Source: Nemertoderma westbladi
Lineage: Eukaryota > Animalia > Xenacoelomorpha
Direction: 5' to 3'
Assembly (NCBI GenBank): GCA_032718475.1
Contig: JAUCBJ010006895.1
Location: 91,790-155,789 of the forward strand
DNA: 64,000 bases
Shown here: one piece after another, positions 14,663-61,554 of the stretch
Layout: every line of letters begins with the position of its first letter
How positions within the stretch are numbered: the first letter of the stretch is position 1
Notes under the pieces: model-generated
Seen by the model: only the letters and a program-made list of their open reading frames with translations
What the model was told of the DNA's origin: nothing
Database searches by the model: none
Made by a program: the position numbers and the translations under genes

Positions 14663-14674
14663 TTAAAGGATATA
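14663..14674 (+). promoter_or_regulatory. Non-tRNA primer-binding site TTAAAGGATATA, complementary to LTR 13901-13912
   Basis: Abuts the LTR end. Perfect 12-nt reverse complement of TATATCCTTTAA in the LTR. No TGG. Confidence 0.75.
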
Positions 14675-19900: not shown

Positions 19901-22900
19901 AGACGACGGCGAAAGCCAGACTTCTCAAGGAGAAGATAGCGGGAAAGACACTGATAGATCTTATTATGTCAATAAAATGCCTAAAGATCAGGTAAGTAAA
20001 TTCAAGTCTCGAGCAAATGACAGGAGAGAACAGGTAAGAAAAACTCCTCCCACGTCTCCCAAGAGAATTCAGGTGAGAAAGCCAGAAGAAAAGGCAAGTG
20101 TACACAATGTGACTCAGAATAAGGTAAGTAACATCAAACCAAAATGTGCGCTGTGTGACGGGACCCACCATTTGAATAGGTGTGATGAATTTCTAAAGAA
20201 ATCATTAACGGAGAGACGCGAAGTCATGTGGGATAAGCGGTTATGTTATAATTGCCTCAGACAAGGACACCTACTTTACTACTTTACTGGCCCTTCCCGT
20301 AGAACACTCAAAGAAAGACTACCGCAAGAGCGCGTCTGTCAGGTGAGTGAATGGGAAGATGATACCAGTGAGGGAGACAACTCAACTGATGGAATTCCAT
20401 ACTCCTCAGATAACGACGACGTTCACCAGCTTTTTGATGAGGAGAATACCATCGATCTCCTTAAGGAAAACGAGGCTTGGCAAAACCAAGTTAACTTATG
20501 TCAACTTCTCTATCCATCTGAACGAGAAGCTTATAACGACGAGTTAAATGACGTCATTGAGCGTTGCAATGCCAAGACTCGAGATGAACATGCTGTACGA
20601 TTCTTTACGCAAGAGGCGGTAGAGCCCAATTCCTACGATAAAGCCTTATCGGTGGAAGAGGAAAGGGCCAAGCAGATCCAAGAGACAACTACACGTTTCC
20701 TCAAAGATCAAGGAAGGTACGAAGTCGGTTTACCTTTTCGCAAGAGAGAACCGAAGTTCATCAATAACAGACCTTTGGCGGAAAAAAGAATCGCGCAACT
20801 CCATCGACGCCTTACGGCTAATTCTTCAGCTAAAGCAATGTATCAAACACAGCTGAAAAAATTTATTAATAAGGGATACGCGGAGAGGGTACCGGAAGAA
20901 ACACCTGTGACTGAAAGAACGTATTACTTAACTCACCATTACGTTCCTAAACCCGGTAAACCACACGAAGTGAGAGTAGTGTTTGATGGCTCCGCTCTTT
21001 ACATGGGTCAATCCCTTAACTCTGAATTGTTACCCGGACCCAACTTGCTTCAATCTTTGTTGGGAATTCTTTTAAGATTGAGACAATATTCTATTGCTTT
21101 CGCCTCCGATATAGAAGGCATGTTCTTATAAGTCAAGGTGTTAGATAGGGATCGAGATAGTCTACGATTTCTGTGGTGGCCCGAAGGAGACCTCAACCAG
21201 AAACCGGTGGAGTACTGGATGACCATCCAGGCCTTTGGGATAATCTCAAGCCCTTCCAACGCCTGTTCGGTAGTGCGCACTACTGCAGAGGACAACAGAC
21301 AGGCCTTCTCTAAGGAAGTGATCGACAACATCAAGAGAGACATATACATGGACGACAATCTGAAGTCCCTTCCATCAGTTGAGGAAGCCATTGAGGTCGC
21401 TAAAGGAACGGTAGAGTGCTTAAAAAGAGGTGGTTTTCGATTAACAAAATTCACCAGCAACTCCCGTGAGTTTCTGGAGTCGATCCCTGCGGAAGATCGA
21501 GGAGCGAAAGATCTCGATTTGATCAAAGATGATCTGCCAGAAACCAAGACACTCGGCTTGAAATGGGACACAGAGCGAGATATCCTGTTTTTCCAACTAA
21601 AACAGCGAGATAATCCAGTTCGAACCAAACGGATTTGCTTAAGTATACTGAGCACTTATTTCGATCCATTGGGATTTATTAGCCCAGTTATATTGATTGC
21701 TCGAAGTTTGGTACAACAAATGTGGCTTGAAAACCACTCATGGGACGATCCACTTAAGGGAGAATTATTGAAGAAGTGGATGAAATGGGAAGATTCTCTA
21801 CCAGCCATCGAGGATTTTATAATTTCCCGTTCATATTTTGGTCATGTTCTCCCTACGTATTCCTATCAACTCCATGTGTTTGGAGACGCCAGCGATATGG
21901 GAATCGGTATAGTAGCCTACCTAAGAGTGGAAACTCCGGATGGAATCAAAGTCGCCTTGGTTACTTCTAAGGCATTAATCAACAACAAGTTGAAAGTTCC
22001 TCGAGCGGAGTTAAAAGCGGCTCTATACGCTACAGCCATCGGCCGGAATGTAACCGAACAGATTGACTATACATTAGAGAAAACTGTCTATTGGACCGAC
22101 GCTTTACTCGTGTTAGAGTATATAACCAATGAAGTCTGTCAGTTCAGCGTCTTCATTACCAACAGGGTAGCCATCATACTTAGTCGCACGACGATGGACC
22201 AATGGAGACATTGCCCCGGAACGATTAACCCAGCAGACATCGCTTCCCGAGGAGCGACTCCAAAGGAATTGGTAAATACTCCCGAATGGTTAGGAGGACC
22301 CGACTTTCTCTATAGAGAAGAAGAAGAATGGCCTCCCCATCTCACAACAGCAGAGATCAGACAGGCCAAGGGAGCGGAGAAAGTTAAACCCAAAACTCGA
22401 GCGAGTAAATCGAAGTTGTTTAAACCTGCGGTTGATCTATCTGTATTATTTACTTCCGGAGAGGATGCTTTGGATCAGAAACCCACCGCCACGACTAAAG
22501 AAGTCTTGGAAATCCGTGACAAGGATTGGAAATCTGGAATACCAGATATTTCGCAAGGACTCTCACCTCTCTTGCAGAGAGCGATACGTCACTACAGTTC
22601 CTGGAATCGGCTCTGTAAATCTGTCACCTATTTAAAACGATGTTTTCATCATCGTTACTCCGGGACAAAGACCCATAGTGATGATGCTCCATCAACATCT
22701 GCACGAGTCCATGTTGTTAAAGATCTTCCCCAATACAAGGTATCCAACAGGTTTCTAAAGGAGAAGATCAGTTACCAGGAGCATGATGAAACCAACAAAC
22801 AGATGCTGAGACTTCTACAATGTTATGAGGATTCCGATAAGTATTTCCTGTTGTTAAGAAATCCACAGATGCGCTTAAGGGATCGCTTCTCTAGTACCAT

Positions 22901-24230
22901 GATAGATGGGTTAATACGTGTTGGAGGTCGGCTAACCAACGCCCCGTTATCCTTTGACACTAAGTTCCCCATACTCATCAGAAATCTTGACATACAGATC
23001 AAGATAATTGTAGATGTTCATAGCAAACTGTATCATGCTGGTAGAGAACGAGTTATGAGCGAAATTCGAACTCGCTACTATTTTTATAAACCTCGTAGGG
23101 CTCTGAACCAAGTTCTTAGGAATTGTATACCCTGTAGGAAAGCATTCAGTAGGCCTTTGACACAGCGAGAGGCAGAATTACCTAGGGAAAGAGTAAGCTT
23201 CTATGAACCACCCTTTACTAATACCGGTGTGGATTTATTTGGCCCTATTGAAGTATATCGTGCCCGGACTATAGTCAAGAGATGGTGTGTCATCTTCGTT
23301 TGTATGACTTGTAGAGCTATCCATCTCGATATGGTAAACGATCTATCCACCAACAGCTTCGTGTTGAGTTTACGACGACAGATCGCTCGCTTCGGAACCA
23401 GTAACACGATGAGATCGGATAAGGGAACGAACTTCATTGGCGCCAACAACGAAATTCAAGCTTACGTAAAGGACTGGAATAAAAGACAGGTGGACGACCA
23501 GCTAAGGATAACAGCGTCTAGCTGGACCTTCAACGCCGCCGACGCCCCTTGGTGGGGAGGAAGTTGGGAGAGATTGATTAGGAGCGTGAAGACTGCGTTC
23601 CACTTTATTGTGCCTTGTCGCGCTTATCTCACCGACGAACTATTGCGGATGTTAATGGAGGAAATCGCCGCCTATCTCAACGAAAGACCGCTTATGCCAG
23701 TCTCTTCAAATCCTGATTCCCTGGAAGCGCTAACACCCGCGCACTTTCTACTGAAGAAACCCGTAGCCATGCTCCCACGATCGGAGATCACAGACGGAGA
23801 CGAGTACTGCCGTCGAACCTGGCAACTTATGCAGTTGCTATCCCGTCGTTTCGCTGACCATTTCGAGAAACATTACCTGCCCACTCTACAACTTCGAACT
23901 AAGTGGTTTGCGCAGCAAGAAAACGTCAGCGCTGGAGACATGGTGCTTATTGTGGACCCCGATCTCCCACGTAAGCGATGGCAAACAGGACGTATCATCG
24001 AGACTTATATCTCGAGCGATGGTTTGGTGCGATCAGTAGAGCTCGTCGTCATGCGGCGGAACTTTAAGAAACCAGGGATAGTCTTTGAGACTCAACAGCT
24101 CAATCGCCCAGTGGGACGTTTATGTTTACTGGAAAGAGACAGAGAGCTCTCCGGAAACTATGGAAGGCAAGAAACTCTTCCCACGACTACTTCCCTAATC
24201 CAACCGACATCTAGGGACTCCCCAACTTAA
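16932..24230 (+). pseudogene. BEL/Pao gag-pol polyprotein, single frame with one premature TAA at 21129-21131 and the protease deleted
   Basis: ORFs 16932-21131 and 21138-24230 are in the same frame (MFL*VKV, expected MFLQVKV). Gag FNGDEMKWLPF and Zn knuckles. RT VRVVFDGS, LLPGPNL, YMDD. RNase H LHVFGDAS, PRAEL, WTD, NPADIASRG. IN HHCC, GVDLFGP, SDKGTNF, GGSWERLI. Confidence 0.95.
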
Positions 24231-25853
24231 TATCGTTCGGAGTGGGCGTGTGACTCTATTATTTTATATTATTTTATTATTTTTATATTTATGTATGTAT
24301 TACTATGTAATTTTATTATAATCGTTTTATTTAATTTAGTAGAATATTATTTAGCGATTATTTTGTAGAATAGTGCAATATATTCGTGTTTATTACGTAA
24401 GTAATTACTTATATTATATTTAGTGAGACGGCGAAGAAATAATTATTTTTCTCTTTCCTTACTGTCCGTATTATATTATAAATACGTAACTACAGTAAGA
24501 TGAAATGTCCGTACTTATTAAAGTACAATAAAGCCACTACTATATTTAAGTATTATTGGTAGGCAGAGTATTAGGAATGCAAAGTTCAGATCCTCGTGTC
24601 TCGGCTAAACCAAGCTCTGGGTAAACCTTGGAAACGACTTGCCTCTTCACACTGACATTGCTTCGTGCGATATTGCTCTCATACCGTATATTAAATAATA
24701 CATATAGTAGCGTGATGTCCCTTTAACAGTAGCGTATAACGCAAAATAAATCTGTTAAACCCTTTGACCATCTGTAATTCTAGTCGATTAAGATATCGCG
24801 GCACCCACCGATATACTTGAAAGACAAATTCTAGAATCAGTGGTTAACGTCCCCAGACAAGTTCTGGAATAAATCGGTGCCCATCTCAAATATTAATTAT
24901 TTAATATTTGCAAATCTAATAAATCAAAATCTGTAAAATTCAGATCCTTCAACAATTCTAGTCAATTAAGATATCGTAGCATTTACCGATATTCTTAAAA
25001 AAGACAATTGTCATAGAATTAAGGATCTTGTGTCTCTAGACATGTTCTAGAATCAAAATATGTCCATTTAATTATCAAATAATAAAATTTCAGGGAATAA
25101 ATTTAAATTCATGCCTTTTAATGAATTTAATAAATTGCCATTTTTACGCAATTTATAAAGTTCCCAAAATTCCATTAATTAATAGATCAAGGGAGCGGAG
25201 ATTTATCTTATCATGCGTATGAGTGTGTGAAAGTCTCCCAAACATAGTCAATAGCCGATAAAATTCATAAAGTCATGTATAAAACAGAACATTGATTATT
25301 AAAGAATACTATTAAATAACATCCCAGATCTGTATGCATTGGAATCACCCTAATTCTACCGCTAGCTTTGCATAATGTCACCATAGCAACAACCACGCTA
25401 GAATTAGAATTGAGTTAAAAGAACAATAGAAAGCTTGTCCCATTGAATAGCATAGGGAATAAATAGCGCACTGCTAGTATCCAAGGATACATAATAATAC
25501 AGTGACATTCTGGAAGGCATTGACTAACGGACAAATGGCCCGAATGTGCGTAGTTGTGACCAGTTGTGTGGTATTTGTGAGTTTATAGGTGAATGTTACT
25601 GCTAAGGTGTGTTTACAGTAGCTAGTCGCAATCGTAAAAGTAACCTAACTCTCCAAGGAAAACCTGAAGTACATCCAAGCCTTTGGGACGGACAGTCGAG
25701 TGACTTGTGCCGGTTGTCGTTGTCGTTGTGCGGCTACGTCGTTGGCGAAAGTACAGCGGCGACGACACATCGGCGCTGAGGATCTCGTACTGTCCAGGGG
25801 TTAATTGGAGTAGGCAGCGACGCTCGCTAGCCTAAATATAAACTCCTTATAAT

Positions 25854-27163
25854 ATGGATAAACTCATATATAGCAGATATGACGGAGTGATAGAAGATGG
25901 TCTTGGTATCGGGGAGCGATATACTCTACTTTTGCAAGCGTTTGTTGATAGCTTAATACGCGGCGACGTTAGTCCAACTGCTGCGGAGGACGATGGTCGT
26001 TATATCGAACCGACAATGTCCCAAGTGCAGCTCTCGCGAGAGTTGGACTATAGAAAATTCGCTGCTCGATATACGCAGCGTAATGGTACGTATATGGGCT
26101 TCTTAACTACTGGTCATTCTATCAATTTACACAATACGGACTATGTCGACTATATATCCTGCCCAGCGGAGTCGGAACCATAAACTGAAATTCGAATGCG
26201 AAAATTCTATTCGAAATCGACTCGAAAGAAAAGACACTAAAGAAACAAATGGACGCGGTAACTCCAACGTATATTTGGAATTCTTGATAGAAGCATTGTA
26301 ACAACAAATAAATATCACCCGCGTTTACCTTACCAGACGTGCGTCTTTGGTATTATTACGATAAATGCCCTAGACCCAACTAATAAACGGAAAGACATAA
26401 ACGTCCACGGAAACCGAAACTTGTTGACGTATCACCTATGCTCACTCGGCTCGAACGATCCTGGAGTAAACCTACGATCAGAGTCCCGGAATACTCGGTC
26501 AAACCTCCTCATTCCTTAGTTGGACCTCAGACCTGCGATCCTGGTGGTGTCGCGGATCCTCGCGGACTGTATTCACTGTTCAAAGATCTAGTGCTACCCT
26601 AACAATTAATCGGTAACACTCCGACAGTGATTTCTAGCTAGCCGCCCATCTTACCTAGCCGGATTGTGACGCGGACACCTAATATCACTATCCAACCGTA
26701 TGGTCGTCCCCGTTTAACGCGATACAACCCCTCATCAAGGTGAAGGAGAGCTTTGTACGAAACGAGTTAAACGCAATTCTATAAAGATCAAAAGAGAAAC
26801 CTGCGTTTGTTCAGATAAACGTAAGTTATAACAGTAAGTCCAGTCGATAAACGAATTGGCCTTATCTCAATTCGATTGGGAAATCCAGAATCTCTAAGAA
26901 GTTATCGAACTTGGACGATCCTATTCTCTGCGAGAGTTTTTGGATGAACGTATCCAGCTACGAGCGGAGGAAAATCAGCTCGAGGAGAAGCATATCGAAA
27001 CGGCAGATACCTCGACCACAATCCTACACCTTCTGATGCAATCATATTGCACCCTTCACCCAGGAGTTATGGCCCTCCTAGTAAAGTGGCTCCCCCCAAA
27101 GAGAAAAAGACTCTTGCTAGCCTCAAAAAACTGCGTAAACGCCGTCTGCGTAAGAAGGGCTAA
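25854..27163 (+). pseudogene. Degenerate accessory ORF3 of element 1, homolog of 45308-46756
   Basis: N-terminus (IEDGLGIGERYTLLLQAFVDSLIRG...ENSIRNRL) and C-terminus (PSDAIILHPSPRSY...KKLRKRRLRKKG*) match element 2 ORF3. Frameshift and stops in between. Confidence 0.75.
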
Positions 27164-27233
27164 CTGTTTAGAGTATCTTTATATTTTAGAAACTGTGATT
27201 TGTTATATTTTATAGACTTAAATCCCATTTTCT

Positions 27234-27241
27234 GGGAGCGG
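27234..27241 (+). promoter_or_regulatory. Polypurine tract of element 1
   Basis: GGGAGCGG directly before the TG of the 3' LTR. Identical in element 2 at 46827-46834. Confidence 0.75.
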
Positions 27242-28445
27242 TGTAAAAGCTTTTGCATAATTAGCCGGTTATTTTCCCTTAAAGTACTCTGTAGTTGGTT
27301 TGCCAGGCATAAAGAGGCCGTGTCCTTGCTGTACTGGTGTTTTAGAGGACATAAAAGTCATTTCTTATGTATTTGTACTGTATTTGTACTTTAGAGGACA
27401 TAATCCACAATCTCGTGACGCAATAGCTGGATACTTTTGAAAACAGTGTCGCTACCATGACGACGGCTAGCAGCTGATATTGCCACGTCGACGTTTCTTT
27501 GTTTCTTTGTTCTCTCGTTGTTCAGGTTGACCAATCAGAGCGTTTGTTGTCTCTGTGTTGGAGGTGTATACAGAAACTCAGTAGTTCAGTGTTATGTTTT
27601 TGCCCAGAGCCTAAGAACCGGCTTTTGGCACCTCCGTGTTTTCAGTTTTTAGTCTTACACTAGTAGGCTTAATTATAAGGACATATATCCTTTAACTGCA
27701 ATTTCGTAATCACTGCTGACACACGGCTTTTAATAACTGCTGAAACTGCTAAAATTTACCTGCTCAATCGATACTGTATACTGCTATTTGTTGTCGGTTA
27801 TTCATTATATTTGTTGATGAATTATTATATTGGAATAACGAGAAATAACCCCGAAAACCCAATATTCTTGATATACCGAAGGTAAGAGAGAAAGGTTACC
27901 AATAACTATTGTGACTTATGTTAAAGTGGTTTGAAGTGAATCTAATGTTATTTGATAGACCCTACATGAGTCAGTCTGTGTTCCTTTTATATGTGACTAA
28001 AATCAGTGAAGATTGGCAGATTAGTGTGCAGTATTGTGCAGCATTGTGTATGAGTGAGTCTGTTAAAGAAGCAATTCCTAAAGAATGCGCCATATATGTG
28101 AATTATAATTGAGCCATATCGTTGTGAGTAGTTTAAGTCATAACTCTGTTTATATAGATAAAGCGCCACGTCCTAAAGGAACTGTTAATATTCCCGAAGG
28201 TGAATAATATTGTCAGAGATTATATAATACTGTCAGTCGAATAATACATTAGGCTTACATAGCAATAAAAATTAAGCCGTCGAACCCAATCTCCCGGGAA
28301 TATCCAGCGGGTGAATGATCGCGCACAGATTGGTTTCGACTAGTGTAGTGAATCAAATACTTGTCATAGGCTAAAAAGCGATTTATTATCTAGAAGACAT
28401 CTTAATTTGGCGGGTTAAACTGCCAAAGGTCTGAAAGCGCGAACA
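27242..28445 (+). repeat. 3' LTR of element 1 (TG...CA)
   Basis: Direct repeat of 13459-14662, followed by TSD GACGC. Confidence 0.97.
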
Positions 28446-29070
28446 GACGCAGTAACTAATATATTATAATGAATTAATGATTTCTAGAAAAATACTCAGT
28501 CGACTAACATTTTATCGACGAATTAAAAGTAAAGTAGTACTTTTATTTAATTAAATTAGTGTATGATAATGGAGGAGGCCATAAGGTACCAAATGATAAT
28601 AAATATTGTATGTTTGATTCTCATGGTCGGACAAATGAAGTACCGGTAAGGCATCTCTCACGAAACACGGGCCTTCAAAACGGCCAAAATTACGGAAATT
28701 GTTTTCAATAAATAGTCACCGTCTGTGTCCGTTCAGTTTTACTGAACACTGTCGCCATATTTTATTTGCTCATTTTCTCTAAAATGCCTTCTATAGGACA
28801 TATGAAAAGTCTTACTTACACGTTAAACAATTATTCACATACAGTACATAGGCCGCACGTATTATGCAAAGACGTGCTGCTTTATTGAATAAAGCAGAAC
28901 GCATTAATATAAATGGAAGTAATACATTCTGGAATACGGTAATTGAAGTTGTTACCATGTCATTGATTACTTTTGCAGCCTTACGAGTAATTCAGCAGAA
29001 CGCTGTTAAATTGACATAATGTAACAATAACTATTTACATCATTGTGTGCAAAGTAGCACTTTGCAGCGT

Positions 29071-34762: not shown

Positions 34763-35889
34763 GTAAGACATATTATATTATGTTTGTATATGTTTGTTTA
34801 TATTGAATATCGTAGCTTAAGAGTCATAAGGATAAGGCCCTAAGTCAAAGAGCCTACAAAAGATATCGAAAGATATATGATGGCCTTTCTGCAGTAAGAT
34901 ATTGCCCAATAGGAATGTCGGATTTCACTTTACCACGTAATAATCATCACTTCCCATTGGATAAAATATTCAAAACTTCACCAGCTAATACAGCATGTCT
35001 TAAAGCAACGATATATATATATGAATTAGATGGTGTTTCTTTTTATTCGAAGTTTTTTTAACATGTAAAACATACAATATTGGTATAAATATATAGAGAA
35101 ATATCCCCCCACCAAACAGTTAGACTATCACCAGCTGATAGGTTGGTTGCTAGGCTACCAACCAAACATACACACATAAATATAATTTTTTCCAAAATTG
35201 TAACATTACTCAACGTCATTAGTAATAACAGTGAGTTGTTATTTAGCACTTTACAACTTTTGATGACATTACAGCATTGTATTGGCCTGTAGTACATTTA
35301 GTATTGTATTGGTGTTGTAATGTCCCTTGTTTATGTATAACCAATGACGGCGATTTGTAAAGTTACGGCGTCATTGGTTACCATGTAAACAATAGGTGGA
35401 ATTTATAATTAATTGCCTGACAGCCAGATAAGCCTACTTTTTTCATTTCATAAAACACCCGGACGAGCCGGTATTATATTAGATAAAATATATATATACG
35501 GAATACATATACATATATAAGTGGGTACGCACGGTTTATCATTGGCAATAGGATAAAGATAACATAGGTAAATAAAGTGCACATATATTTGGGCAAAACG
35601 CATCAGACAAAGATAACATATGTAGGTAAATAAAATGCACATACAGCATGTTTGAGCAAAACGCATCAGGTCATTGTAAAAAAATAAGAAAACTTGGTGC
35701 AGATGTAATGAGAAGCATGTCATAAGGTTTTCTATCTCGAAGGGTGGACCACATAGCCATATTAACATTAAGTGAGGGGGGGGGGGGGGGGGGGATTGCA
35801 GAGTGCAGGTAGAAGTGATTATAATAGGAGTTTGCGTTGCAAATATAGTTGGATATCAGATTAGGAAACGCCATAATATGTATGAGAGT

Positions 35890-37157
35890 TGTAAAAGCTT
35901 TTGTGGGATAACTGATACGTTTGCCTTTGCTGGCCAGTTCCCCCCCAGGCGCTGGAATACTCTAAAAAAGGTTTTCTAACTGTATATATATTCCCCTCGC
36001 CCGCAAGGTACCTTTACAGGTGTTTTAACGGACATAAAAATCATTCTGCTATATACGTGTTTTAGCGGACATGGTAAGACAAAAAACTTGTAATGCACCA
36101 ACCACCTTTCACAGCTTAGCCGTGATGATTCATATTACGACATCTAGCAGCTGGTTGCTGACATGGAAACAGCCATTGGCCGCGTGGTTCTTTGTTTGGC
36201 TTGGGCCAATCAGGGCGGTTTTTCCTGTCGACGTGTAGCTTTTCTGCCGATCATAAGGAGAGTGTTCAGTCTTACTGTTTTTTACTTGATACTTTGTTGT
36301 TATTGCTGTCTAAGCCAGAAACACCGGCATTTTGGATAGATACTGCTGTACCGTAAACTGCTTGAATTATCGAAAGTATAAACTGTTACCTTAACTCACT
36401 AACGAATCTTAACTAATTGATCAATCTTAATTAACATACTCACTTAATTTAATTGCATTAATCATATTGTTTGTACTGTTATTTTACCGTCAGTTATTAA
36501 TTGTAAATATTTGTTGATGGAAATATTGCTATTTGGATAATACGGATAAATCACCCAATTCCCAATTTTCTTGATAACACTACAGGTTAGAGAGACCGGC
36601 TATACATAACAATTGCGATTTATATTAATGTGGTGTGTATTGAATCCAATGTTATTTAGCAGACCCTACGTGAGTCAATTACTGCTCTCTTTATGTGTGA
36701 TCAAATATACTGACTGTCGGCAGAATAGTGTGTATGATTGTGATTGGTAACAAAGTATTTCCTAAAGAATACGCTTTATACTTTAATCATAAGCAGTATC
36801 GTTGCGTTTTAGTATAAGTCTTAGTTCTGTTTAAATAGATAAAGCGCCACGTCCTAAAGGAACTGTTAATATTTCCCGAAAGCCAATAATATCTGTCAGA
36901 GATTAATTATTAACGATCTATCGAATAATACATTAGGTATACACTGCAACCTTACACTGTAATAATACAATTCAAGCATCCGAATTCAGTCTCCCGGGTG
37001 TAGATCCATCGGGTGAATGATCGCGCATGGGCTGATTTCGGCTAATGTTTGGCGTATTAGCATAAATTATTGTCGTATGCTAAAGTGGTTTTAATTAACT
37101 AAAAGACATATAAATTTTGGCAGGTTAAACTGCTAAAGGTCTTCAAAAGCGCGAACA
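35890..37157 (+). repeat. 5' LTR of element 2
   Basis: TG...CA, repeat of 46835-48102. Confidence 0.97.
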
Positions 37158-37170
37158 GTAACAGTTTATA
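37158..37170 (+). promoter_or_regulatory. Non-tRNA primer-binding site GTAACAGTTTATA, complementary to LTR 36377-36389
   Basis: Abuts the LTR end. Perfect 13-nt reverse complement of TATAAACTGTTAC. Confidence 0.75.
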
Positions 37171-39436
37171 ATCTTATTGCAGTAGGCAATAAGGTTGCAA
37201 GTGTAGGCATTAAATACAGTTTAATACTGTTCTGGCGAACAGTAACGGTTTACAATCTTATTGCAGTAGGCAATAGGGTTGCAAAAATACCGTAGTGACC
37301 GGTAAAACTGAACCGGTACTTTGTAGGTCAGTAGGCCTAACTGTCATCACCGGTACCGGTACTGCCGTACAAGTACATTTAGTATTATTCGATTTTGATT
37401 GTTGTATACCGGTAGGTCTTGGTACTTAATCAGGGAACGGCCGCCCTGATTTTTTATTTGAGATTCTACTTATTTCTGTCGGTTTTATTTACTAGTAGGC
37501 TAATATTGAGCAGAAGGCGTGTGACCCTGCTCAGATTGTTCAGATAATTGTAGGCTGAGCTGCTGTCTGACTGTTGTTGGGTTTGGAGAGATTACGGCGT
37601 GTGTAGAGTTTGTCTGATAAAGTGCCGTTAGTAAGTTGGGGCAGTCATAACTGTAAGGTCAATCCCCTCTTAAAGAGTAAGTCGTACTACCGTGTTAGCA
37701 CGCATACTAACTAACAGTTTCAGAGTCTGCATATACTGTAGTTTATCTAGGCTTGATCGTAGTCTGCCAGTGTTTTAGCCTGTGTTTGTTTGTGTGGTCT
37801 GTTCAGGTACCGTAATAGTTATTACTCAAATATTTGTAGGCTGGATTGTTGTCTAGCTATTTTTGGGTCTGAAGGGATTGCTGCGTGTGTAGAGTTGGTC
37901 TGATCAAGTGCCGTTAGTAAGTTGGGGCAGTCATAACTGTAAGGTCAATCCCCTCTTAAAGAGTAAGTCGTACTACCGTGTTAGCACGCATACTAACTAA
38001 CAGTTTCAGAATCTGCACATACAGTAGTTTGTTTAGGCTTGATAGTAGTCTGCCAGCGTTTGGTTTGTATTTGTTTGAGTATTCTGTACGGGTAGCGTAA
38101 TATTTATTATTCAGAGTTTATGCGATTATTCGCACCATTCATGTCCCCAAGTTTATTCCTACAGTAACTGTGCTTGTTATACATACCGTTATAGTTAAAC
38201 TAACCCCGGTACTACATCAGGGCTGCTTGGCGTAGGTAAAGACTGACGACTTTGTGCTTCGGTCACTCCAGCAGATGCCGTGGTTCTTTTAACTGTTCAA
38301 GTATATTTAACTACTGATTATTTGTTATACCGGTACTTGTACCTAATTTAGGGTTTAGAGTACAGTGCCTTCCGAAGTAATTAGTGTAGGCAGTATATTT
38401 GTGTTGTAAAGTGGTTGATAGGCACATTCGTTAGCTCTATTAGCTTCTGGGTAGGAACAATCCGTGATACATAACGTTGTACCTATAGCGATACGGTTAT
38501 AGGTCGTCAGGCGGTGGTATTTTCCTATCTGGACAGTACAATATATTTACTACTACTTATTATTTAAATACCGTAGTACCCTGTCCTTTGTAATAGCCAG
38601 AAATCTAACCCTTTGTTAGACTGGTTTGTAGACTTCCTGTAAAATTACCCTAAAAAATTTCGTCCGTAATATTTTTGTTGTGTTTAATTAGAGAATTAAT
38701 CTCACCCATATCGTAAGTAATTTGTAGTATTAAGTAACTTAGGTAAATTAGAATTATCAGTTTTAGTGTCTCAATAAGTAACACTTCACTGACAGCGCAC
38801 AGCTTCTGTGTAGTGATTCCCCCAGAAATAATAACATTTATTTCAAATATTGACAAAAAACCCATTTAAACGGGTATATATCTATTATAAATCAACTCAA
38901 ACGATTTATAAGTAGTAGGCCTGCCATACCACAACTAGGTCTCAAAATCAGTTGGACTACTGCTTAAATAACGGTAACAAAGTAAGTTAAAGTAACCAAG
39001 TAACCCTAAAATATTCAGAAATTCAATTATTCTAAAATAATTGACATACCGGTATTTACCATAGGCTTATTATATTTATTTCTATAAATTTGTGCTGAAA
39101 TCATACCGGTACTCTGTAATTAATTATAGTCCAGAATTATACTTATATATTATAAGTGTAAGCTGTATACCGGTATCCACGATAGGCCTATTATATATTT
39201 ATATATTTATATATATATTTGTGCTAAATTTATACACCGGTACTCTGTGGCAAATCTGGTCTGTAATAATACTTATATATACTATAAGCATACCGGTATT
39301 CTGATATAATATATATATATCCCGCTATATTAAGTAGCAGTATCGGTAATTAATTATTAGGCTAGCGGTGATACTGAATTACTAGACTTGCTTTAACTGT
39401 ATTTATAGCCGTAGGCATTTAACTGTGTAAACAAAC

Positions 39437-42400
39437 ATGTCGGACACAACCCAATCACTGTCGGATAGTCTTTTGGAAAGTGTTAGAATGACTGTTAGAC
39501 AGTGTCTTAAAAAGATCAGTGACCCAGATCCCAGTATAGAACATCCTAGATCCAAGTCTAAGTCACCTCCTGCTGTAAGAAAGGCCATCCCTACCGTAGT
39601 AGTGTCAGACCCTAGACTAGTAGAACACCGTAGGTCTATCATCGGAACTCGGGCCCAAGTCAAGCGGGATCAAGAAGCAGCTATCAAACAGCAGCAACCT
39701 CCTAGCCCAGAACCTAGTTCTCAGCGGCCCGATGGCTCCAGTAGTTCGGATACTGCTGAGCGGAGACCCGAACACGGAGCGAAGATGGCGGATACGGTTT
39801 ATGATGAGCGGCCAACCTATGAAGAATCAACCGACGCCACTTCTTCTCAAGTAGAAAGCGAGGTGGAAAGCGAAGTGGAAAGCGAATTAACAGCAGCAGA
39901 GAAGCCGCGAACTAGAGACGCCATTGACATATATCTGTCAGACTATCAGCGATTCATAGGAGACGAAGAGTTGAGGAGACGACTGTCTGGACTTCGCCCT
40001 AATAGTGAAGGAACCAAGCTTGTGTTGGACGCAATCGATGCGGAAATGTTAGCTGCAAACCAAGCTGAATGTGATGAAAAACTCCGTCTCACTAGAGTCC
40101 GAGAAGAACAAATAAAGAAAAGAAGGATAGAGGAACAAAAAACGGCGGCTATGGCGGCGGCTATAGCAGATGCAGAAGCAGAAAGTAAAGCAGCAAAGGC
40201 GGTGGCAAAGGCAGATGCAGAAGCAGAAAGGAAGGCAGCGGCTGCAGATGTAGAAGCAGAAAGAAAGGCAGCGGCTGCAGATGCAGAAGCAGAAAGAAAG
40301 GCAGCGGCTGCAGAGGCAGAAGCAGAAAGAAAGGCAGCGGCTGCAGATGCAGCGGCAGAAGTAGAAGCAGAAAGAAAAGTGGCAAAGGCAGTGAGAGAAG
40401 CAGAAAGGAGAGCATCTGAGCAGACTACCCAACTGGAGTTGGAGAATCTGCAAGAGACACAAGACAGTATAACTAAACAGTTTACTGCTAATCAAATGCA
40501 GATGATGAGAAAATCTACTCCCAAGCGCCAAGGGTACACATCATCGGAGGAAGGCGATACTACCGAACCTGAAGGCGGAGGAGATAGATCTCATCTAAAT
40601 AGGCGCAGAAAAACATATTACCGTCGTAAATTGCCTGATTTGCCCCCAGCTGTTAAAAGACAGCTAACTAGCACAGATTTAGGTAGTGCGGAACCTATAG
40701 AACAATTTATCCAGGTCAAAAGACTCCCTACTATAGTCGATGAACCTGAAATAATTAGGCCTGTAATTCCCAAAGTCACTTCTATGCTAGAGACCCCTAC
40801 ACTTCCAGAGCTTAACTCTAAATTCCCTTTACATAGCACTACACTGCCTGTACCCGGTGGAACAGTCCATGCAAATACCCCTGTCCAGATAGCAGAGAGA
40901 GAAATCAATAATTTGTCTCCCGTCGTCCCGCGTCAGCCCGCTACTATGTTGGCGACTCCCGCTTCGGCGGTTGAGTGGGTGGAAGAGGGACGGCGGGGGA
41001 TGAATCTCCTGCTAGGACAGATGCAGGAGACTGTCCACCAACTTAAGGGAACAGTGAGGGAAGGTAGAGCAGAGTTGCAAGAAGTGCAGCAAAGTATCGC
41101 GCTAGAACGCGACAAATTAGTCAATATACAAAAAGGCATACCAATGCCTCCTCCTGTAACATTGTGTCAACCCGTTAGGTCTGAAGTATTACATGCGCCA
41201 GGTGTGGAGCCTACACGCATCTATACTGCTAGTGAAGTTGAAACTCCTATAGCAAACCCTATTAAGGGTGATTATAGACCTGTTATTAATGATATTCCCT
41301 ATAGACCTGATAATGATCCGAGAAATTTGTATACCGATAATTCGATATTAAATAACACGATGGCCCAAGAAAGCTTTACGCGTCAGATGGCTAGAACAGA
41401 AGCCCGCCAAGCGGTCAAAGTGGGAGAGATCGTCAAATTCAATGGAGATGAGATGAAATGGTTACCTTTCAACGAATATTACAAAGATAGCATACAGAAC
41501 TCTGTACTATCTAACGGAGAGAAACTTAGATTCCTCATCAAGTGTTTGGAAGGACCTCCCAAGTTAATGGCGTTAAAGTTTATTGGACATCCAGATGGAT
41601 TAAGACAAGTTTGGGATACACTAAACATCAGGTATGGTAACAAGGATAACATAGCTAAGTATTTGTATGCAAAATTAGTAGCCCCCCGACACTTCCTTAG
41701 TAGCGGGATTATAGAGTTTTCCGATGAAATTCAAGAGATCTGTAGACAACTGGACTGGTTAGGTAAGTCGCATGAATATCAGAGTTCCATGGTTATTGGA
41801 GCCGTAGTCTCTACTTTACCAAAGGGTGGAGTATGTACACGCTGGGACAAGAAAGTGTTGTACATGAATGAACAACAACGACGAAGTCCTACCATGGCTG
41901 ATCTCATGTCTTTCTTAGATAGTGAAGTAAAATTACAACTCATAAGGCAGGCCAGAGAGAAAACATCGGAAAATAAGGTAAGTGAGAAACCCGATTCTAG
42001 GAGAAGGATAATACCAGTGTGTTATACTGACGACGGCGAAAGCCAAGCTTCTCAAGAAGAGGACAGCGGGAAAGACACAGCAAAATCTTACTATGACAAC
42101 AAGACCTATAAAGACGTAAGTAAATACAAGTCTCGAACCAGTGACAGGAGAGAACAGGTAACAACAACTCCTCCTACGTCTCCTAAGATAATTCACGGAA
42201 GAAAGCCCGAAGAAAGAACGAGAGTGCATAACGTTAACCAAGTTAAGGTGAGTAACATCAAACCAAAATGTGCGCTGTGCGACGGGCCTCACCGTTTGAG
42301 TGCGTGTGCTGAATTTCTAAAGAAATCCCCTGTAGACAGGCGTACAGTCCTGTGGAATAAGCGGTTATGCTATAATTGCCTCAGATCAGGACACCAACGG

Positions 42401-43696
42401 CGAACCTGTTACTCCGACGCAAAGTGTGCAAAGTGTGGCGCGAAACATCACATTTTGTTACACAGTGAGTTCGAACGAGACAACCCGAGTCAGGTAAGTG
42501 AGCCCGAACTACATGTCCAATTCAGTGATGTGAACGACACTGACCAAGGTTCTGAGTGGGAAGGATTCTATACAGACGAATTCTCCGATGCCAACGAATC
42601 CTGTTATCTAATAAATACCACAGTGTATCGAGCACTTACGGATGAAAAGGACACTGACGAGTTTACTCCAACTCCTTTTGACAAACAACCATCTTGGAAA
42701 GTTCCAACTTCCAACATAGGAATAAGAGAATTTCCTGTAGTGCAAGTTCGAGTTCATGGTCCCAACAAGAGTTACATAGTGAACGCCCTACTTGACTCCG
42801 GCAGCACAGGAACATTCATCGATCAAGAACTAGCCGAAGATATCTTTGCTGGACAACCCAAGTTCCGGACTAAATTGAATATGTCAGGAATTATGCAGGT
42901 TTGGAAATCTACCCTAACGGCAGATTACTATGTAGGTGTGTTGTCCACCCCCCAGGATAAGTTAGGAACACAAGGTATAAGGTCAGTAAAAATGGTGGCT
43001 ATAAAGAACTTTGCTACTACTCAAGCAGAACCTTATAACTGGGACGAGGACGAGTGCATCCAACATCTTGAGATACCTCGATTCCAAACCGATTATCCTG
43101 GAGTGCAAATACTCATCGGCCAAAACGCGCATGAGGCGCTCGAGCCATTAGAGAAACGGCCTGCTCAACCACAGCCACTACAAACCTATGCGGTAAGAAC
43201 TAGAGTAGGTTGGTACTTCACTGGCCCTTCCCGTAGAACTCTCAAAGAGAGATTACCTCAACAACAGGTATACCAAGTAAAGGGGGAAGTGGAGAGCAGT
43301 GATGTGGACGACCCAACTGAGGGAACACCATACTCCTCAGATAATGACGATATTAACTCCAATGTAGATCAATGGAGACATTGCCTTAGGACGATTAATC
43401 CAGCCGACATCGCTTCCAGAGGAGCAACTCCTCAAGAACTGATAGATACTCCAGGCTGGTTAGGTGGATCCGACTTCTTAAGTAAAGAAGAAGAAGGATG
43501 GCCTCCTCATCTTACCACGGCGGAGAGTAGACAGGCCAAGGGAGCGGAGAAACTAACACAACCACTCAATCGCCCAGCTAGTCGTTTATGTTTACTGGAA
43601 AGAGACCGAAAACTGTCCGGAAACTATGGAAGGCAAGATACTCTTCCTACGACCACTTCCCTAATCCGACAAATATCTAGGGACTCCATAACGTAA
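39437..43696 (+). CDS. Gag-aspartic protease polyprotein (1419 aa) fused in frame to short RNase H and IN-tail remnants
   Basis: Three Cys/His knuckles, ALLDSGS and ILIGQN protease motifs, NPADIASRG remnant. No RT or IN core. Confidence 0.92.
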   Translation: MSDTTQSLSDSLLESVRMTVRQCLKKISDPDPSIEHPRSKSKSPPAVRKAIPTVVVSDPRLVEHRRSIIGTRAQVKRDQEAAIKQQQPPSPEPSSQRPDGSSSSDTAERRPEHGAKMADTVYDERPTYEESTDATSSQVESEVESEVESELTAAEKPRTRDAIDIYLSDYQRFIGDEELRRRLSGLRPNSEGTKLVLDAIDAEMLAANQAECDEKLRLTRVREEQIKKRRIEEQKTAAMAAAIADAEAESKAAKAVAKADAEAERKAAAADVEAERKAAAADAEAERKAAAAEAEAERKAAAADAAAEVEAERKVAKAVREAERRASEQTTQLELENLQETQDSITKQFTANQMQMMRKSTPKRQGYTSSEEGDTTEPEGGGDRSHLNRRRKTYYRRKLPDLPPAVKRQLTSTDLGSAEPIEQFIQVKRLPTIVDEPEIIRPVIPKVTSMLETPTLPELNSKFPLHSTTLPVPGGTVHANTPVQIAEREINNLSPVVPRQPATMLATPASAVEWVEEGRRGMNLLLGQMQETVHQLKGTVREGRAELQEVQQSIALERDKLVNIQKGIPMPPPVTLCQPVRSEVLHAPGVEPTRIYTASEVETPIANPIKGDYRPVINDIPYRPDNDPRNLYTDNSILNNTMAQESFTRQMARTEARQAVKVGEIVKFNGDEMKWLPFNEYYKDSIQNSVLSNGEKLRFLIKCLEGPPKLMALKFIGHPDGLRQVWDTLNIRYGNKDNIAKYLYAKLVAPRHFLSSGIIEFSDEIQEICRQLDWLGKSHEYQSSMVIGAVVSTLPKGGVCTRWDKKVLYMNEQQRRSPTMADLMSFLDSEVKLQLIRQAREKTSENKVSEKPDSRRRIIPVCYTDDGESQASQEEDSGKDTAKSYYDNKTYKDVSKYKSRTSDRREQVTTTPPTSPKIIHGRKPEERTRVHNVNQVKVSNIKPKCALCDGPHRLSACAEFLKKSPVDRRTVLWNKRLCYNCLRSGHQRRTCYSDAKCAKCGAKHHILLHSEFERDNPSQVSEPELHVQFSDVNDTDQGSEWEGFYTDEFSDANESCYLINTTVYRALTDEKDTDEFTPTPFDKQPSWKVPTSNIGIREFPVVQVRVHGPNKSYIVNALLDSGSTGTFIDQELAEDIFAGQPKFRTKLNMSGIMQVWKSTLTADYYVGVLSTPQDKLGTQGIRSVKMVAIKNFATTQAEPYNWDEDECIQHLEIPRFQTDYPGVQILIGQNAHEALEPLEKRPAQPQPLQTYAVRTRVGWYFTGPSRRTLKERLPQQQVYQVKGEVESSDVDDPTEGTPYSSDNDDINSNVDQWRHCLRTINPADIASRGATPQELIDTPGWLGGSDFLSKEEEGWPPHLTTAESRQAKGAEKLTQPLNRPASRLCLLERDRKLSGNYGRQDTLPTTTSLIRQISRDSIT

Positions 43697-45307
43697 TAAC
43701 ATATGGAGTGGGCGTGTGACTATATCATTTTATATTTGTTTTTATTTTATATTTATGTATGTATTATTATGTAATTTTATTATAATCGTTTTCTTTAATT
43801 TTATTTAGTAGAATGTTAGTTTAGAATATTTAGTAAATTAGTGCAATATATTAGTGTTTATTACGTACATAATTACTTATAATATATATTTAGTGCGACG
43901 GCAAGAAGTAATTATTTTCTCTTTCCTTACTGTCCGTATTATATTATAAATGCGAGACTATAGTAAGATGACATGTCAGTACTTCTTAAAGTACAATAAA
44001 GCCACTACTATATTTAAGTATTATTGGTAGGCAGAGTATTAGGAATGCAAAGTTCAGATCCTCGTGTCTCGGCTAAACCAAGCTCTGGGTAGACCTTGGA
44101 AACGACTTGCCTCTTCACACTGACATTGCTTCGTGCGATATTGCTCTTCTACCTTATAACAAATAATACATATAGTAGCGTGATGTCCCTCTAACAGTAG
44201 CGTAAATCGCAAATAAATCTGTTAAACTTTTGACCATCTGTAATTCTAGTCGATTAAGATATCGTGGCACCCACCGATATACTTGAAAGACAAATTCTAG
44301 AATCAGTGGTTAACGTCCCCAGACAAGTTCTGGAATAAATCGGTGCCCATCCTAAATATTAATTTAATATTTATTAAAATCTGTAAAATTCAGATCCGTT
44401 AAAAATTCTAGTCGATTAAGATATCGTAGCACTTACCGATACTCTTAAAAGACAAATTTCATAGAATTCAGGATCCTATGTCCCCAGACCTGCTCTGGAA
44501 TCCAATTGTGTCAATTTAACATCAAATAATAAAATTCACGGGAATAAATTTAAATTCATATTCGAATGAATTTCATAAATTGTCATTTTGCGCAATTTAT
44601 AACATTCCCAAAATTCCAGTAATTAATAGATCATGGGAGCGGAGATTCATATTGAGTGCGAGAATCTACAACATATAGTCAATAGCCGATAAAATTTATA
44701 AAATCATGCATAAAGAGGATATTGACAATTAAAGAATTACTATTAAATAACATCCCAGATCTGTATGCATGAGAATTACCCTAATTCTACCGCTAGTTTT
44801 CCAAAATGTCACCATGGCAACACCCACGCTAGAATTAGAAACAAGTTAAAGGACCAATAAAAGCTTGCCCCATTGCGTAGCATAAGAGTATACATAGAGC
44901 ACTATTAGTATCCAAGGATACATAGTAATAACGTGACATTCTGGAAGACACTGACTAACGGACAAATGGCATGCGTGTGTGTAGTAAGTAATGATTGTAT
45001 GGAATTTGTGCGTTTATAGGTGAATGTTACTACTAAAGTGTGTTTACAGTAGCTAATCGCAATTGTAAAATAGCCCTAACTCTACTGAGATAACCTCAAG
45101 TGGATTCAAGCCTTTGGGACGGACAGTGGTGGGACTTGTGTCGGTTATCGTTGTCGTGCTGTTGCTACATGTTGGCGTAAACACTGCGACAGCGGTACAT
45201 CGGCGCTGAGAAACCCACTGTCCGGGGGCAAAAGGCCTAGTAGGCAGCGACGCCCGCTTGCCTAAAATATTAACTTATATTGATATTAATAAACTCAGAT
45301 AACAGAT

Positions 45308-46756
45308 ATGACGGAATTGATAGAAGATGACCTTGGTATTAGAGAGCGATATACTCTACCTTTACAAGCGTTTGTGGATAGCTTGATACGCGGTGAAGCC
45401 GATCCGACTATTACGGAGGACGATGGTCGTTATATCGAACCGCCGATGTCCCAAGAGCAACTTACGCGTGAATTGGACTATCGAAAATTAACCGCTCGCT
45501 ATACGCATCGTAATGGTACGTATATGGACTTCTTAACTACCGGCCATCCTATCGATTTACATGATACGGACGATGTAGACACCGAAGGGGAAATGGTTCT
45601 ATTTAAATATCATACCCAGCGGCGTCGTAACGATAAACCGAGAATAGATCACGAAAATTCTATTCGTAACAGACTGGGAAGACGAACCAATATGCCTAGA
45701 ATCTGAGGAGATTCAGCCTATCGCGCCCGGAACAACGACAACGATTACATCCTAGAATGGTATCAAGGTCCACAGTGTCTTACTGCGTATGATTATCGCC
45801 ATGCCAATTATGTTTCTCGACAACGTTGTCGGCTGTGCGCATCGAGAGACCATATTACGTCTATGGACACCAACGATCTTTGTTCCTATTTCCACGAGCA
45901 ACCGTCGATGGAAATCTATTGTGCATATTGTCGTCTTAATAATTTGCACATTTTTGCCGTCTGCCCCCAATTTATGACTCAATGCCATCATTGTCAATTA
46001 AAAGGACACGCCAGCTTTGATTGTCCCTTTAACCATGATTTAGAGAGCGTAGATGAAATGATTGTACTACGTTATATAAGAGCTTGGGAAGCGAACGCTG
46101 ATTTACATTGTGACTCACGCCATCGCTATTATCCCGGACGCGCCTATGAAGGAGTTTATGCGTTCCATCCATATTTGTTTGCCTCCGTCGAGCAGAAATC
46201 GCGCCTATCAAGTTATGAACTATTGAAGCGCGTTGGAGAATGTATTTCAACCAAATATGTGCGTAAATTTCTCAGGAGCATTAATCCGAGTGACATCCAG
46301 TCTTACAACTTAATAAACTTTATCCGTCAAGACCCTGCCTATGGAGACTTATTCGTCAACTCACACCCTGAGTTACAAGAAGTATATCGACGGCCTTACG
46401 AGTATCGAGCCCGCGAACGCGAGTTAGAAAGAACCATTAAACCAAGGAAGTTTCTAACGGCCTATGGTCCACCCACGGCCCTCGTTCAGACCACTCGTAA
46501 AGGACCCGTAAGAGCGGCTGTCTTGAAACGAGCTCTCAAAGCCGTTAGACCCCTCTCCCCTGACGTTGATGTTAATCAACCCGGTACTTCGACCGGCGGA
46601 TATACCGATCGCAATCCCATACCTTCTGATGCAATCATATTGCACCCTTCACCCAGGAGTTATAGCCCTCCTAGTAAAGTGGCTCGCCCCAAAGAGAAAA
46701 GGACTCTTGCTAGCTTCAAAAAACTGCGTAAACGCCGTCCGCGCAAGAAAGACTAA
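45308..46756 (+). CDS. Accessory ORF3 of 482 codons with one in-frame TGA (45704-45706), three CCHC-like knuckles and a basic C-terminus
   Basis: ORFs 45308-45706 and 45863-46756 share a frame and the gap between them is open (GDSAYRARN...CRLCASRDHITS). Confidence 0.75.
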
Positions 46757-46834
46757 CTGTTTAGAGTATTTTTGTATTTTAGAAACTGTGATTTTGTATA
46801 TTTTATAGACTTAAATCCCATTTTCTGGGAGCGG

Positions 46835-48102
46835 TGTAAAAGCTTTTGTGGGATAACTGATACGTTTGCCTTTGCTGGCCAGTTCCCCCCCAGGCGCTGG
46901 AATACTCTAAAAAAGGTTTTCTAACTGTATATATATTCCCCTCGCCCGCAAGGTACCTTTACAGGTGTTTTAACGGACATAAAAATCATTCTGCTATATA
47001 CGTGTTTTAGCGGACATGGTAAGACAAAAAACTTGTAATGCACCAACCACCTTTCACAGCTTAGCCGTGATGATTCATATTACGACATCTAGCAGCTGGT
47101 TGCTGACATGGAAACAGCCATTGGCCGCGTGGTTCTTTGTTTGGCTTGGGCCAATCAGGGCGGTTTTTCCTGTCGACGTGTAGCTTTTCTGCCGATCATA
47201 AGGAGAGTGTTCAGTCTTACTGTTTTTTACTTGATACTTTGTTGTTATTGCTGTCTAAGCCAGAAACACCGGCATTTTGGATAGATACTGCTGTACCGTA
47301 AACTGCTTGAATTATCGAAAGTATAAACTGTTACCTTAACTCACTAACGAATCTTAACTAATTGATCAATCTTAATTAACATACTCACTTAATTTAATTG
47401 CATTAATCATATTGTTTGTACTGTTATTTTACCGTCAGTTATTAATTGTAAATATTTGTTGATGGAAATATTGCTATTTGGATAATACGGATAAATCACC
47501 CAATTCCCAATTTTCTTGATAACACTACAGGTTAGAGAGACCGGCTATACATAACAATTGCGATTTATATTAATGTGGTGTGTATTGAATCCAATGTTAT
47601 TTAGCAGACCCTACGTGAGTCAATTACTGCTCTCTTTATGTGTGATCAAATATACTGACTGTCGGCAGAATAGTGTGTATGATTGTGATTGGTAACAAAG
47701 TATTTCCTAAAGAATACGCTTTATACTTTAATCATAAGCAGTATCGTTGCGTTTTAGTATAAGTCTTAGTTCTGTTTAAATAGATAAAGCGCCACGTCCT
47801 AAAGGAACTGTTAATATTTCCCGAATGCCAATAATATCTGTCAGAGATTAATTATTAACGATCTATCGAATAATACATTAGGTATACACTGCAACCTTAC
47901 ACTGTAATAATACAATTCAAGCATCCGAATTCAGTCTCCCGGGTGTAGATCCATCGGGTGAATGATCGCGCATGGGCTGATTTCGGCTAATGTTTGGCGT
48001 ATTAGCATAAATTATTGTCGTATGCTAAAGTGGTTTTAATTAACTAAAAGACATATAAATTTTGGCAGGTTAAACTGCTAAAGGTCTTCAAAAGCGCGAA
48101 CA
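46835..48102 (+). repeat. 3' LTR of element 2
   Basis: Direct repeat of 35890-37157, followed by TSD AGAGT. Confidence 0.97.
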
Positions 48103-49429
48103 AGAGTATTCTGGCTCTTTTCTCTTCAATGCTGTTTGTATTGAGTGTGAGTGTTGTAGTTCTAATGAAATTTGAGCTGATCAGTTCACGATATGTCGGC
48201 TTGGCAAGTGAAATACGCGAATATTAAAAGTTTAGTGCAGAAAGCAGGTCAGGTAAGGCGTAGGATGAGCGTGCGATGCTGTAGCCACAAGAAATGCCGC
48301 GATACGACGCCAGGGGGCGCACATTGCTGAACATTGCAATCCGACAAATTAGTTGTAGAAAGCGACTAGGACAGTTCAATATGCACAGGATGGTACCGAC
48401 ACACAACCGAAGTTCAGCAATCGAGATTGGCACAAGATTGGCGACGTGGTAAAGAGTGCAATTCCCAACATATGGGCCAAGGTTTAGTAAACCTCTTAAC
48501 GATTTGCGGTAGAATACATCAAGAGCGTCACGATCAGTGGAGGTTAGAGAACCTATATTGAATTTTAATCAATATGTGGTAGCTGGTACAGCGAGGGAGT
48601 CCCATAGTTGGAAGACCACCTTAGGAGGAAGCCAGCGCGTTGTCCAGCCTCTAGTATGAAATGTTTGAGAGTAGTAAGCTATCAGCCTGATAGAATCATT
48701 AAGGATTACTTTGGAGTTCGATTAACTTTTAATGTTGTATCCTAAGAAGGTAAGGGCAGAACTTCTTACAACAAAAGATCCACGTATGTTGATAGAGCAG
48801 GGTTTATGACATGGATTTTGGATGCTTTCGACTACAATCCATGAGGTTTTAGTGGGTTCAAAGCTAAGACAGACCGCGTCTGCTTTGTCACTTACAATCT
48901 TTTCCATACGTTCGAGATTAGTAGCCAAGGTGCTAAGAAGGAGGAAGTCATCGGCGTATACTATGGCGCCTAAACACACAGGGCCGACACGAGAACCTAA
49001 GTTGGAACTCTCTAGAGCCGCAGTTATATCAGCTGTGTATAAGTTAAAAAAAGTTGGTGATAGTAGAGAACCTTGGTTTAAACCTTGGGCTACATGTATG
49101 CCGTTACAATCGATGCTACCATTGAATTTGAGAAAAACTATACCACAAGTGTAATATGAGTAGACCGTAGCTGCGATGTGAGGGTTGACTCCATGGTCCA
49201 GCAGGTTTCAAATGAGTGTGCAGTACGCAACATTGTCGAAGGCCGATTCTATATCTAGCTGAAGCAGGTACACTGCGGAACTTTTGGATCTATAATGCTC
49301 AATACATTCCAGCAATGTGGCGATTACTGTGTCAGTGCCTTAACCCTTTTTGTATGCAGTCTGGTTTGTATGGGTGATGCAAGTGTATAAGTACTTTGAA
49401 AGGATAATGTGTTCAAGAATCTTGGCGAA

Positions 49430-57324: not shown

Positions 57325-57718
57325 TACCTACTACATTACGTACCGGTAGCTATTAATAACCAGTAGCTATTAACTATTAATATGGCTCCAAACGCCACCA
57401 TAAATATAAGCTAACTTATTTATAACATAATTTATGTCATTTTTACATTTATTTATGCAGCAACTAATTTAATTTGTTCAGTTTCTATCACTTATAATAT
57501 CATTACATATACAATAATTTCGTAATGTTAAAATTTTGGAATAAAACTACATACATACTTGTTGCAAAGTACTTTACAGTGTTCTGATACTCGTTGCTTT
57601 ATTTTCACTCACTCACTAACGTTCGTTCGTGTAACAAAGCCACCTGGATCATCACACTGTAAAATGCTAATTTACACACCAGTATGTATATAGTTGTTAC
57701 TGTACAGTTGAACATTTG
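57325..57718. repeat. MITE-like dispersed repeat, inverted copy of 61795-62200
   Basis: Reverse-complement match, e.g. ATGGCTCCAAACGCCACCATAAATATAAGCTAACTTAT. Confidence 0.75.
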
Positions 57719-61420: not shown

Positions 61421-61477
61421 TATAGTTAAATTGTCTATGCAGTCTTTGTTAGTTCTAAGTTATGGTGTAAATTTATA

Positions 61478-61489
61478 TTAATAATAATA

Positions 61490-61554
<65 letters not shown>
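61478..61554. repeat. (AAT)n microsatellite
   Basis: Directly visible. Confidence 0.95.

Follow-up and report, generated by a model that had tools for sequence, protein, structure and literature searches.

Two related LTR retrotransposons lie in the 64,000-nt stretch of Nemertoderma westbladi DNA analysed here (the whole of which is called the window), and in each of them the PBS behind the 5' LTR is a perfect complement of a segment within the element's own LTR. The elements belong by their proteins to BEL/Pao, a family described as tRNA-primed, and the pairing is a real feature and, judged from the sequences, likely a new form of the self-priming mechanism. The reading that we favour, at a probability of roughly 0.6, is that minus-strand DNA would be primed in cis by the element's own LTR RNA segment, much as in Tf1.

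Anatomy and family of the two elements

Element 1 (13459-28445) has LTRs of 1204 bp (13459-14662 and 27242-28445) with three differences between them and the TSD GACGC (13454-13458 and 28446-28450), and element 2 (35890-48102) has LTRs of 1268 bp (35890-37157, TG...CA, and 46835-48102) with one difference between them and the TSD AGAGT (35885-35889 and 48103-48107); all features described are on the plus strand. As the LTR pairs are near-identical, both elements were inserted recently. The sequence-only reading had taken the LTR termini to be shared, which holds for the three LTRs that begin TGTAAAAG but not for the 5' LTR of element 1, which begins CGTAAAAG. A short polypurine-tract-like sequence, GGGAGCGG (46827-46834), abuts the 3' LTR of element 2 and is identical in element 1. 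The gag-protease frame of element 2 (39431-43696) carries DUF1759, zinc knuckles and an LLDSGS protease motif, and its RT, RNase H and integrase core are deleted; the gag-pol region of element 1 (16899-24230) carries DUF1759, Peptidase_A17, integrase H2C2 and DUF5641, with the protease region deleted and an in-frame stop within RT at 21129-21131. Both elements are defective, each copy being without some domains. An additional Cys/His-rich frame of 349 codons lies between pol and the 3' LTR of element 2 (45707-46756) and gave no protein family above the cut-off; element 1 shows only partial similarity to it in the matching region. The leaders are unusually long (about 2.3 kb, 14663-16930 and 37158-39436), with a tandem duplication of 286-288 bases and many ACCGGTA words.

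The Pfam matches (DUF1759 in both elements, the other three families in element 1), together with the same families in the closest protein relatives (32-43% identity), identify the elements as BEL/Pao and not as members of the Tf1/sushi group, which has a Ty3/gypsy chromovirus Pol. Domains follow the PR-RT-RH-IN order of BEL/Pao, the protease motif of element 2 coming after gag, and the LTRs have TG...CA ends (one of the four begins CG), a TSD and a polypurine tract. In common with the Belpaoviridae (BEL/Pao; Semotivirus) they have a DUF1759 gag, zinc knuckles, a Pao RNase H (PF05380), H2C2 and DUF5641, TG...CA LTRs of about 1.2 kb and a 5-bp TSD. According to the ICTV profile, members of this family replicate by tRNA priming from an 18-base PBS for tRNA-Arg or tRNA-Gly (PMC8742986), whereas neither 5' LTR in the window is followed directly by TGG or by a tRNA-type PBS, and the elements are longer (12-15 kb versus 4.2-10 kb; PMC8742986). 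They are therefore classified as BEL/Pao-type by their proteins, and their priming departs from the ICTV profile. Neither the Pol protein nor the Pol alignment found a relative among viral contigs. Two metagenome contigs that matched a 20-base LTR-end pattern were both unrelated to the window by BLAST.

Pairing between the PBS and the LTR

The PBS of element 2 (GTAACAGTTTATA, 37158-37170), which lacks TGG and directly abuts the terminal CA of the LTR, is an exact 13/13 complement of an anti-PBS, the inferred self-primer, at 36377-36389 (TATAAACTGTTAC, LTR offset 488, followed by C), which is found again in the 3' LTR at 47322-47334. That of element 1 (TTAAAGGATATA, 14663-14674) also abuts the LTR end and is an exact 12/12 complement of 13901-13912 (TATATCCTTTAA, LTR offset 443, followed by C; again at 27684-27695). 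In both elements the helix reaches precisely to the LTR boundary and contains no G-U pairs. A complement of at least 12 bases in the LTR occurs at only one other of 12,548 internal positions in element 1, and none other of 9,646 internal positions in element 2 reaches a 13-base LTR complement, so chance is a very unlikely source of the pairing. Each element thus shows the Tf1-type arrangement of a PBS that adjoins the 5' LTR and complements an LTR segment. ARAGORN found no tRNA genes within the window; Rfam returned one weak U12 match on 35800-39500, far below the gathering score, which was taken as chance.

The PBSs of elements 1 and 2 differ by three substitutions and one indel, and all four changes are mirrored in the LTR sites. 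Duplex energies were -11.6 and -13.9 kcal/mol for the cognate pairs and -0.5 and -1.7 kcal/mol for the crossed pairs; the pairing is element-specific, as the crossed pairs do not form. Both LTR sites occupy the same columns in a global LTR alignment, within a weakly conserved stretch, and a BLAST alignment of the two LTRs starts only about 70 bases past them. That the PBS differs between the elements and that the LTR site (offsets 488 and 443) has changed to the exact complement had been noted before from the sequence, and the coordinates and mirrored changes confirm it. The same reading held compensatory change to be the strongest sequence evidence that the pairing is functional; this stands in so far as the pairing is very unlikely to be chance, is element-specific and recurs, with different letters, in distant relatives other than the TGG-type ones, but it is not necessarily classical covariation. 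The window amounts to one evolutionary comparison, not four independent ones.

Just 3' of the element 2 PBS is a hairpin (TTATTGC-AGTAG-GCAATAA, 37174-37192), the same as that behind the PBS of element 1. A second copy of the LTR end, PBS and hairpin is present at 37235-37284 (47 of 50 positions identical to 37151-37200), and the leader of element 1 is collinear with this copy, not with the LTR-adjacent one. Two of its three differences fall inside the PBS, and the displaced PBS (37242-37254) matches the anti-PBS at 11/13. As the LTR-adjacent copy alone is perfect, perfection is tied to the LTR-adjacent position, in a control that is a single case with few changes.

Folding of the RNA gave a mixed picture, which counts against self-priming. 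For an element 1 RNA that begins at the LTR site, most pairs of the helix have a probability of 0.9-1.0; moving the start 100 bases upstream brings it close to 0. For element 2 the value is close to 1 if the RNA is cut at 37200 and close to 0 with the leader to 37300, where the site pairs with a repeat of the 8-base PBS core (37216-37223) that rivals the PBS for it. Forcing the helix from an upstream start costs 11 and 4 kcal/mol, and 1-kb equilibrium folds of this kind are weak evidence either way. CCAAT and TCAGT lie with matching spacing about 155-170 and 98-111 bases upstream of the site in both LTRs, and these distances hint that transcription begins some 100 bases ahead of the site, which would make the primer internal. 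As in Tf1, the 5' end of the RNA may serve as primer, or else an internal segment that carries a 5' tail; the motifs hint at the latter, as the spliced relatives described below would also suggest.

Part of element 2 is present in seven of the ten public sequencing runs listed (as contigs; none of the runs is on record as RNA), in which the family is very deep, although depth does not measure copy number. The contigs mapped were those at least 80% alike, from X1, X3, X5 and X7 on 35850-37500 and from X1-X4 on 36300-36470; X5, guessed to be RNA, was excluded as evidence of expression or splicing. In four runs from three studies, contig depth stays high between about 36354 and the last base of the anti-PBS, and over the next ten bases it drops roughly a hundredfold: in X1 it is 476,000 at 36378-83, 333,000 at 36384-89, then 71,000, then 4,000 at 36396-401. 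Among the X1-X4 alignments listed there is no substitution inside 36377-36389, one X4 contig has the LTR site one base shorter in its A run, and the sequence directly behind the anti-PBS varies between subfamilies. As the conserved island includes 23 bases upstream of the anti-PBS, a promoter element could contribute to it. A third PBS variant was seen in the contigs mapped on 35850-37500; its predicted LTR partner is not among the alignments listed at 36300-36470 (X1-X4, contigs at least 80% alike), which counts against self-priming. The window holds a single copy of the word predicted for that partner; it lies at 11760, not in LTR-like sequence, and we regard it as a chance match. The duplication (37151-37284) is polymorphic in the family, as contigs of X1 and X3 pass over 37209-37307. 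The most conserved LTR block, nearly identical in the two elements and with the highest contig depth, is 36802-36913 / 14370-14440.

Self-complementary sites in distant BEL/Pao loci

A Pol-alignment scan of a prokaryote genome collection found 18 BEL/Pao loci (L003-L020), which most likely are contigs of animal hosts that ended up in metagenome bins; one genome, G015, holds three of them. To these, 21 stretches were added from searches of 15 of those genomes plus two further retrievals. Loci with no LTR with leader or no Pol match were left out (L003, L011, L015, L016, L018, L019, L056-L059, L061, L062, L065, L068 and L072), as were L052 and L054 (TGG type, unscanned) and L064 (same contig as L013), giving 21 loci besides elements 1 and 2. 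Each was scanned blind from the LTR start, at every CA and offsets 0-5, for exact matches in unspliced and splice-junction forms, against a null of 20-40 resampled sequences per locus; elements with TGG within 0-4 bases of the LTR end were counted as TGG-type. The strict scan found a self-complement of 11-13 bases in eight of the 15 elements without TGG or with an unknown LTR end, and in none of the six TGG-type elements (L012, L053, L055, L069, L070, L071) did the match rise above the element's own null. The share of null runs reaching the score was 0.00-0.03 for the positives, with 0.15 for L017. In L005 the self-complement is unspliced; in the other seven (L004, L008, L009, L010, L017, L063 and L067) it is found only across a GT-AG junction with a consensus-like donor. 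Four further fits, L006 (11), L066 (11), L020 (12 at offset 8) and L060 (10/11 by eye), are counted as post hoc because the scan rules were relaxed for them. Nothing convincing was found by the scan in L007, L013 or L014 (which has a gap of N), three of the 15 relatives, and this too counts against self-priming. The top scan matches in L006, L013 and L014 lay off the expected PBS position and look like local hairpins or chance.

Among the spliced relatives, L008 (LTR 382/719) and L010 (357/807) are sisters, and both come, with L006, from one assembly. Their PBS has its complement only across a GTGAGT...CAG intron, and a change at three exon-1 bases is accompanied by one at the matching PBS bases (CAC/GTG versus TAA/TTA). 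The distance from acceptor to LTR end is 52-256 bases in the ten spliced relatives tabulated, compared with 750-768 bases between the partners in the window, and the latter distance is a further point against self-priming. The splice-junction form does not apply to elements 1 and 2, where the full match is unspliced and the best spliced matches are 8 and 12. The 12-base candidate in element 2 (donor 36385, acceptor 36585) was rejected, as its donor is poor, it is shorter than the unspliced match and nothing in element 1 corresponds to it. The PBS of element 2 shares a GTAA start with the matched words of L004, L017 and L067. An RT/RNase H tree was built from 30 rows, after removal of six that were too short or had no match; L064 and other loci lacking a Pol match were not part of it. 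All self-complementary relatives share one 16-row group, which is weakly supported (82/86). Element 1 forms a long branch at an open fork together with this group, L003 and the TGG-type L012, a position that also counts against self-priming.

Models of priming

In the pathway that we propose, a transcript from the 5' LTR, starting at or upstream of the anti-PBS, would fold so that this segment and the PBS form a helix over the 12-13 complementary bases observed. Because the helix ends at the LTR boundary, it places a 3' end exactly where minus-strand synthesis must start. By analogy with Tf1, the RNase H of RT would cleave where the helix ends on its 3' side, just ahead of the C at 36390 or 13913, and from the 3' end so formed RT would copy the 750-768 bases of LTR that lead back to the cleavage site. 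The two defective copies would have moved with the enzymes of intact family members. In tRNA-primed retroelements plus-strand strong-stop DNA copies the primer; a self-primer copied in this way would automatically rewrite the PBS in each cycle, and the pair would be kept perfect through substitutions and indels. The PBS is probably re-copied from the primer each cycle, and the mirrored changes then need not reflect selection on separate mutations: they are evidence for priming more than for independent selection, and are not classical covariation. Rewriting would explain why the Watson-Crick match has stayed perfect despite an indel, why the displaced copy has decayed and why G-U pairs are absent. 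The mismatch of L060 is present in both LTRs and counts against strict copying, as copying would not leave it unless the PBS had mutated later. In favour of self-priming, the 11-13 base matches in relatives are close to the 11 of Tf1 in the available parts of PMC7175516. The collapse of contig depth past the anti-PBS, the confinement of the strict-scan matches to relatives outside the TGG type and the mirrored triplet of L008 and L010 also speak for it.

The same LTR segment might instead act in trans, from a separate RNA such as a second packaged genome or short transcripts of a solo or 3' LTR. This would suit partners so far apart and an intramolecular fold that is unstable, a family so deep in the runs could supply many LTR transcripts, and a separate spliced primer RNA would explain why the spliced relatives keep the intron in both LTRs. 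We consider it rather unlikely, since a match within each element and not across subfamilies arises more easily in cis, and Tf1 acts in cis (PMC7175516, in the parts available). A helix that serves as a structural or regulatory pairing (leader closing, packaging, dimerisation or site masking) while another RNA primes is unlikely: no further primer site can be seen, the helix extends precisely to the end of the LTR, G-U pairs are absent from both elements and the lengths in the scoring relatives keep to 11-13 bases. Long-range LTR-leader pairings do occur around retroviral PBSs, and these, with the conserved hairpin behind both PBSs, are what speaks for such a role.

It is very improbable that the LTR site lies in U3, with its TATA start a TATA box, so that it would be present only at the RNA 3' end and its pairing with the PBS would circularise the genome. 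The site of element 2 does begin TATAAA, but that of element 1 begins TATATC, the CCAAT and TCAGT spacing in both LTRs suggests an upstream start, and the partner in relatives spans a splice junction and must therefore lie in transcribed sequence. We give hardly any credence to each PBS binding an internal tRNA fragment with an incidental LTR complement, as every PBS would require a fragment of its own and, in addition, a complement arising by chance, against a background of about 1 in 10,000 positions per element; half-tRNA priming is nevertheless described for some Copia lineages in the available sections of PMC6317226. Returning to self-priming, a broader version, to which we give a little less than even odds, is that a broad BEL/Pao lineage dropped tRNA priming. 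Its 11-13 base primer would be cut from inside the element's own RNA and in most members assembled by host splicing of an LTR intron, the window family being intron-free, and the PBS would be rewritten every cycle so that primer and PBS drift freely together.

In Tf1 the PBS is complementary to an 11-base segment of its own LTR and an RNase H cut makes the primer, as given in the available portions of PMC7175516 and PMC4600332. According to the same portions, Tf1/Tf2 (Schizosaccharomyces pombe), Tj1 (S. japonicus), Tf1/sushi and Tcn1 (all Ty3/gypsy) resemble elements 1 and 2 in a PBS that complements the element's own LTR and not a tRNA. The window elements differ from this group in belonging to the Belpaoviridae, in a 12-13 base helix and in partners 750-768 bases apart within a 1.2 kb LTR; distant BEL/Pao relatives form the partner across a splice junction. 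For the TAR lineage of plant Ty1/copia (Houba, Osr-1), the part of PMC6317226 available predicts self-priming from at least 10 bases, 0-5 after the 5' LTR, that complement the LTR, a pattern seen in elements 1 and 2; the domain order there is that of Copia, the hosts are plants and self-priming is a prediction there too. Within the text available of these three papers self-priming is demonstrated in Tf1, and for certain Ty3/gypsy and Copia lineages it is a prediction (PMC6317226, PMC4600332, PMC7175516), and the accessible parts of PMC6317226, PMC4600332, PMC3601003 and PMC6934838 name it only for Ty3/gypsy and Copia groups. The excerpts of BEL/Pao and related surveys have no mention of PBS or priming (PMC3118150, PMC6238403, PMC8556966), that of PMC554778 uses 'primer' only for PCR, and that of PMC8220671 mentions the PBS only in general terms. 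A full-text literature search found no report of BEL/Pao self-priming; a prior report is possible in subscription journals, Repbase notes or supplements, which were outside its scope.

If the proposal is correct, a self-primed BEL/Pao branch would be the third LTR family with this trait, and its elements would be freed from the host tRNA supply and, we infer, from tRNA-fragment silencing at the PBS. It would also explain how PBS-based annotation could miss such elements, and through the spliced form of the relatives reverse transcription would be linked to host splicing. For a simple test, elements 1 and 2 offer a natural cognate/crossed pair. Elsewhere in the window there is a large AT-rich satellite array from 1245 to about 10000, with spacings of 50, 62 and 12 bases, and long inverted-repeat elements at 10845-12354 and 57364-62145 are probably non-autonomous DNA transposons.
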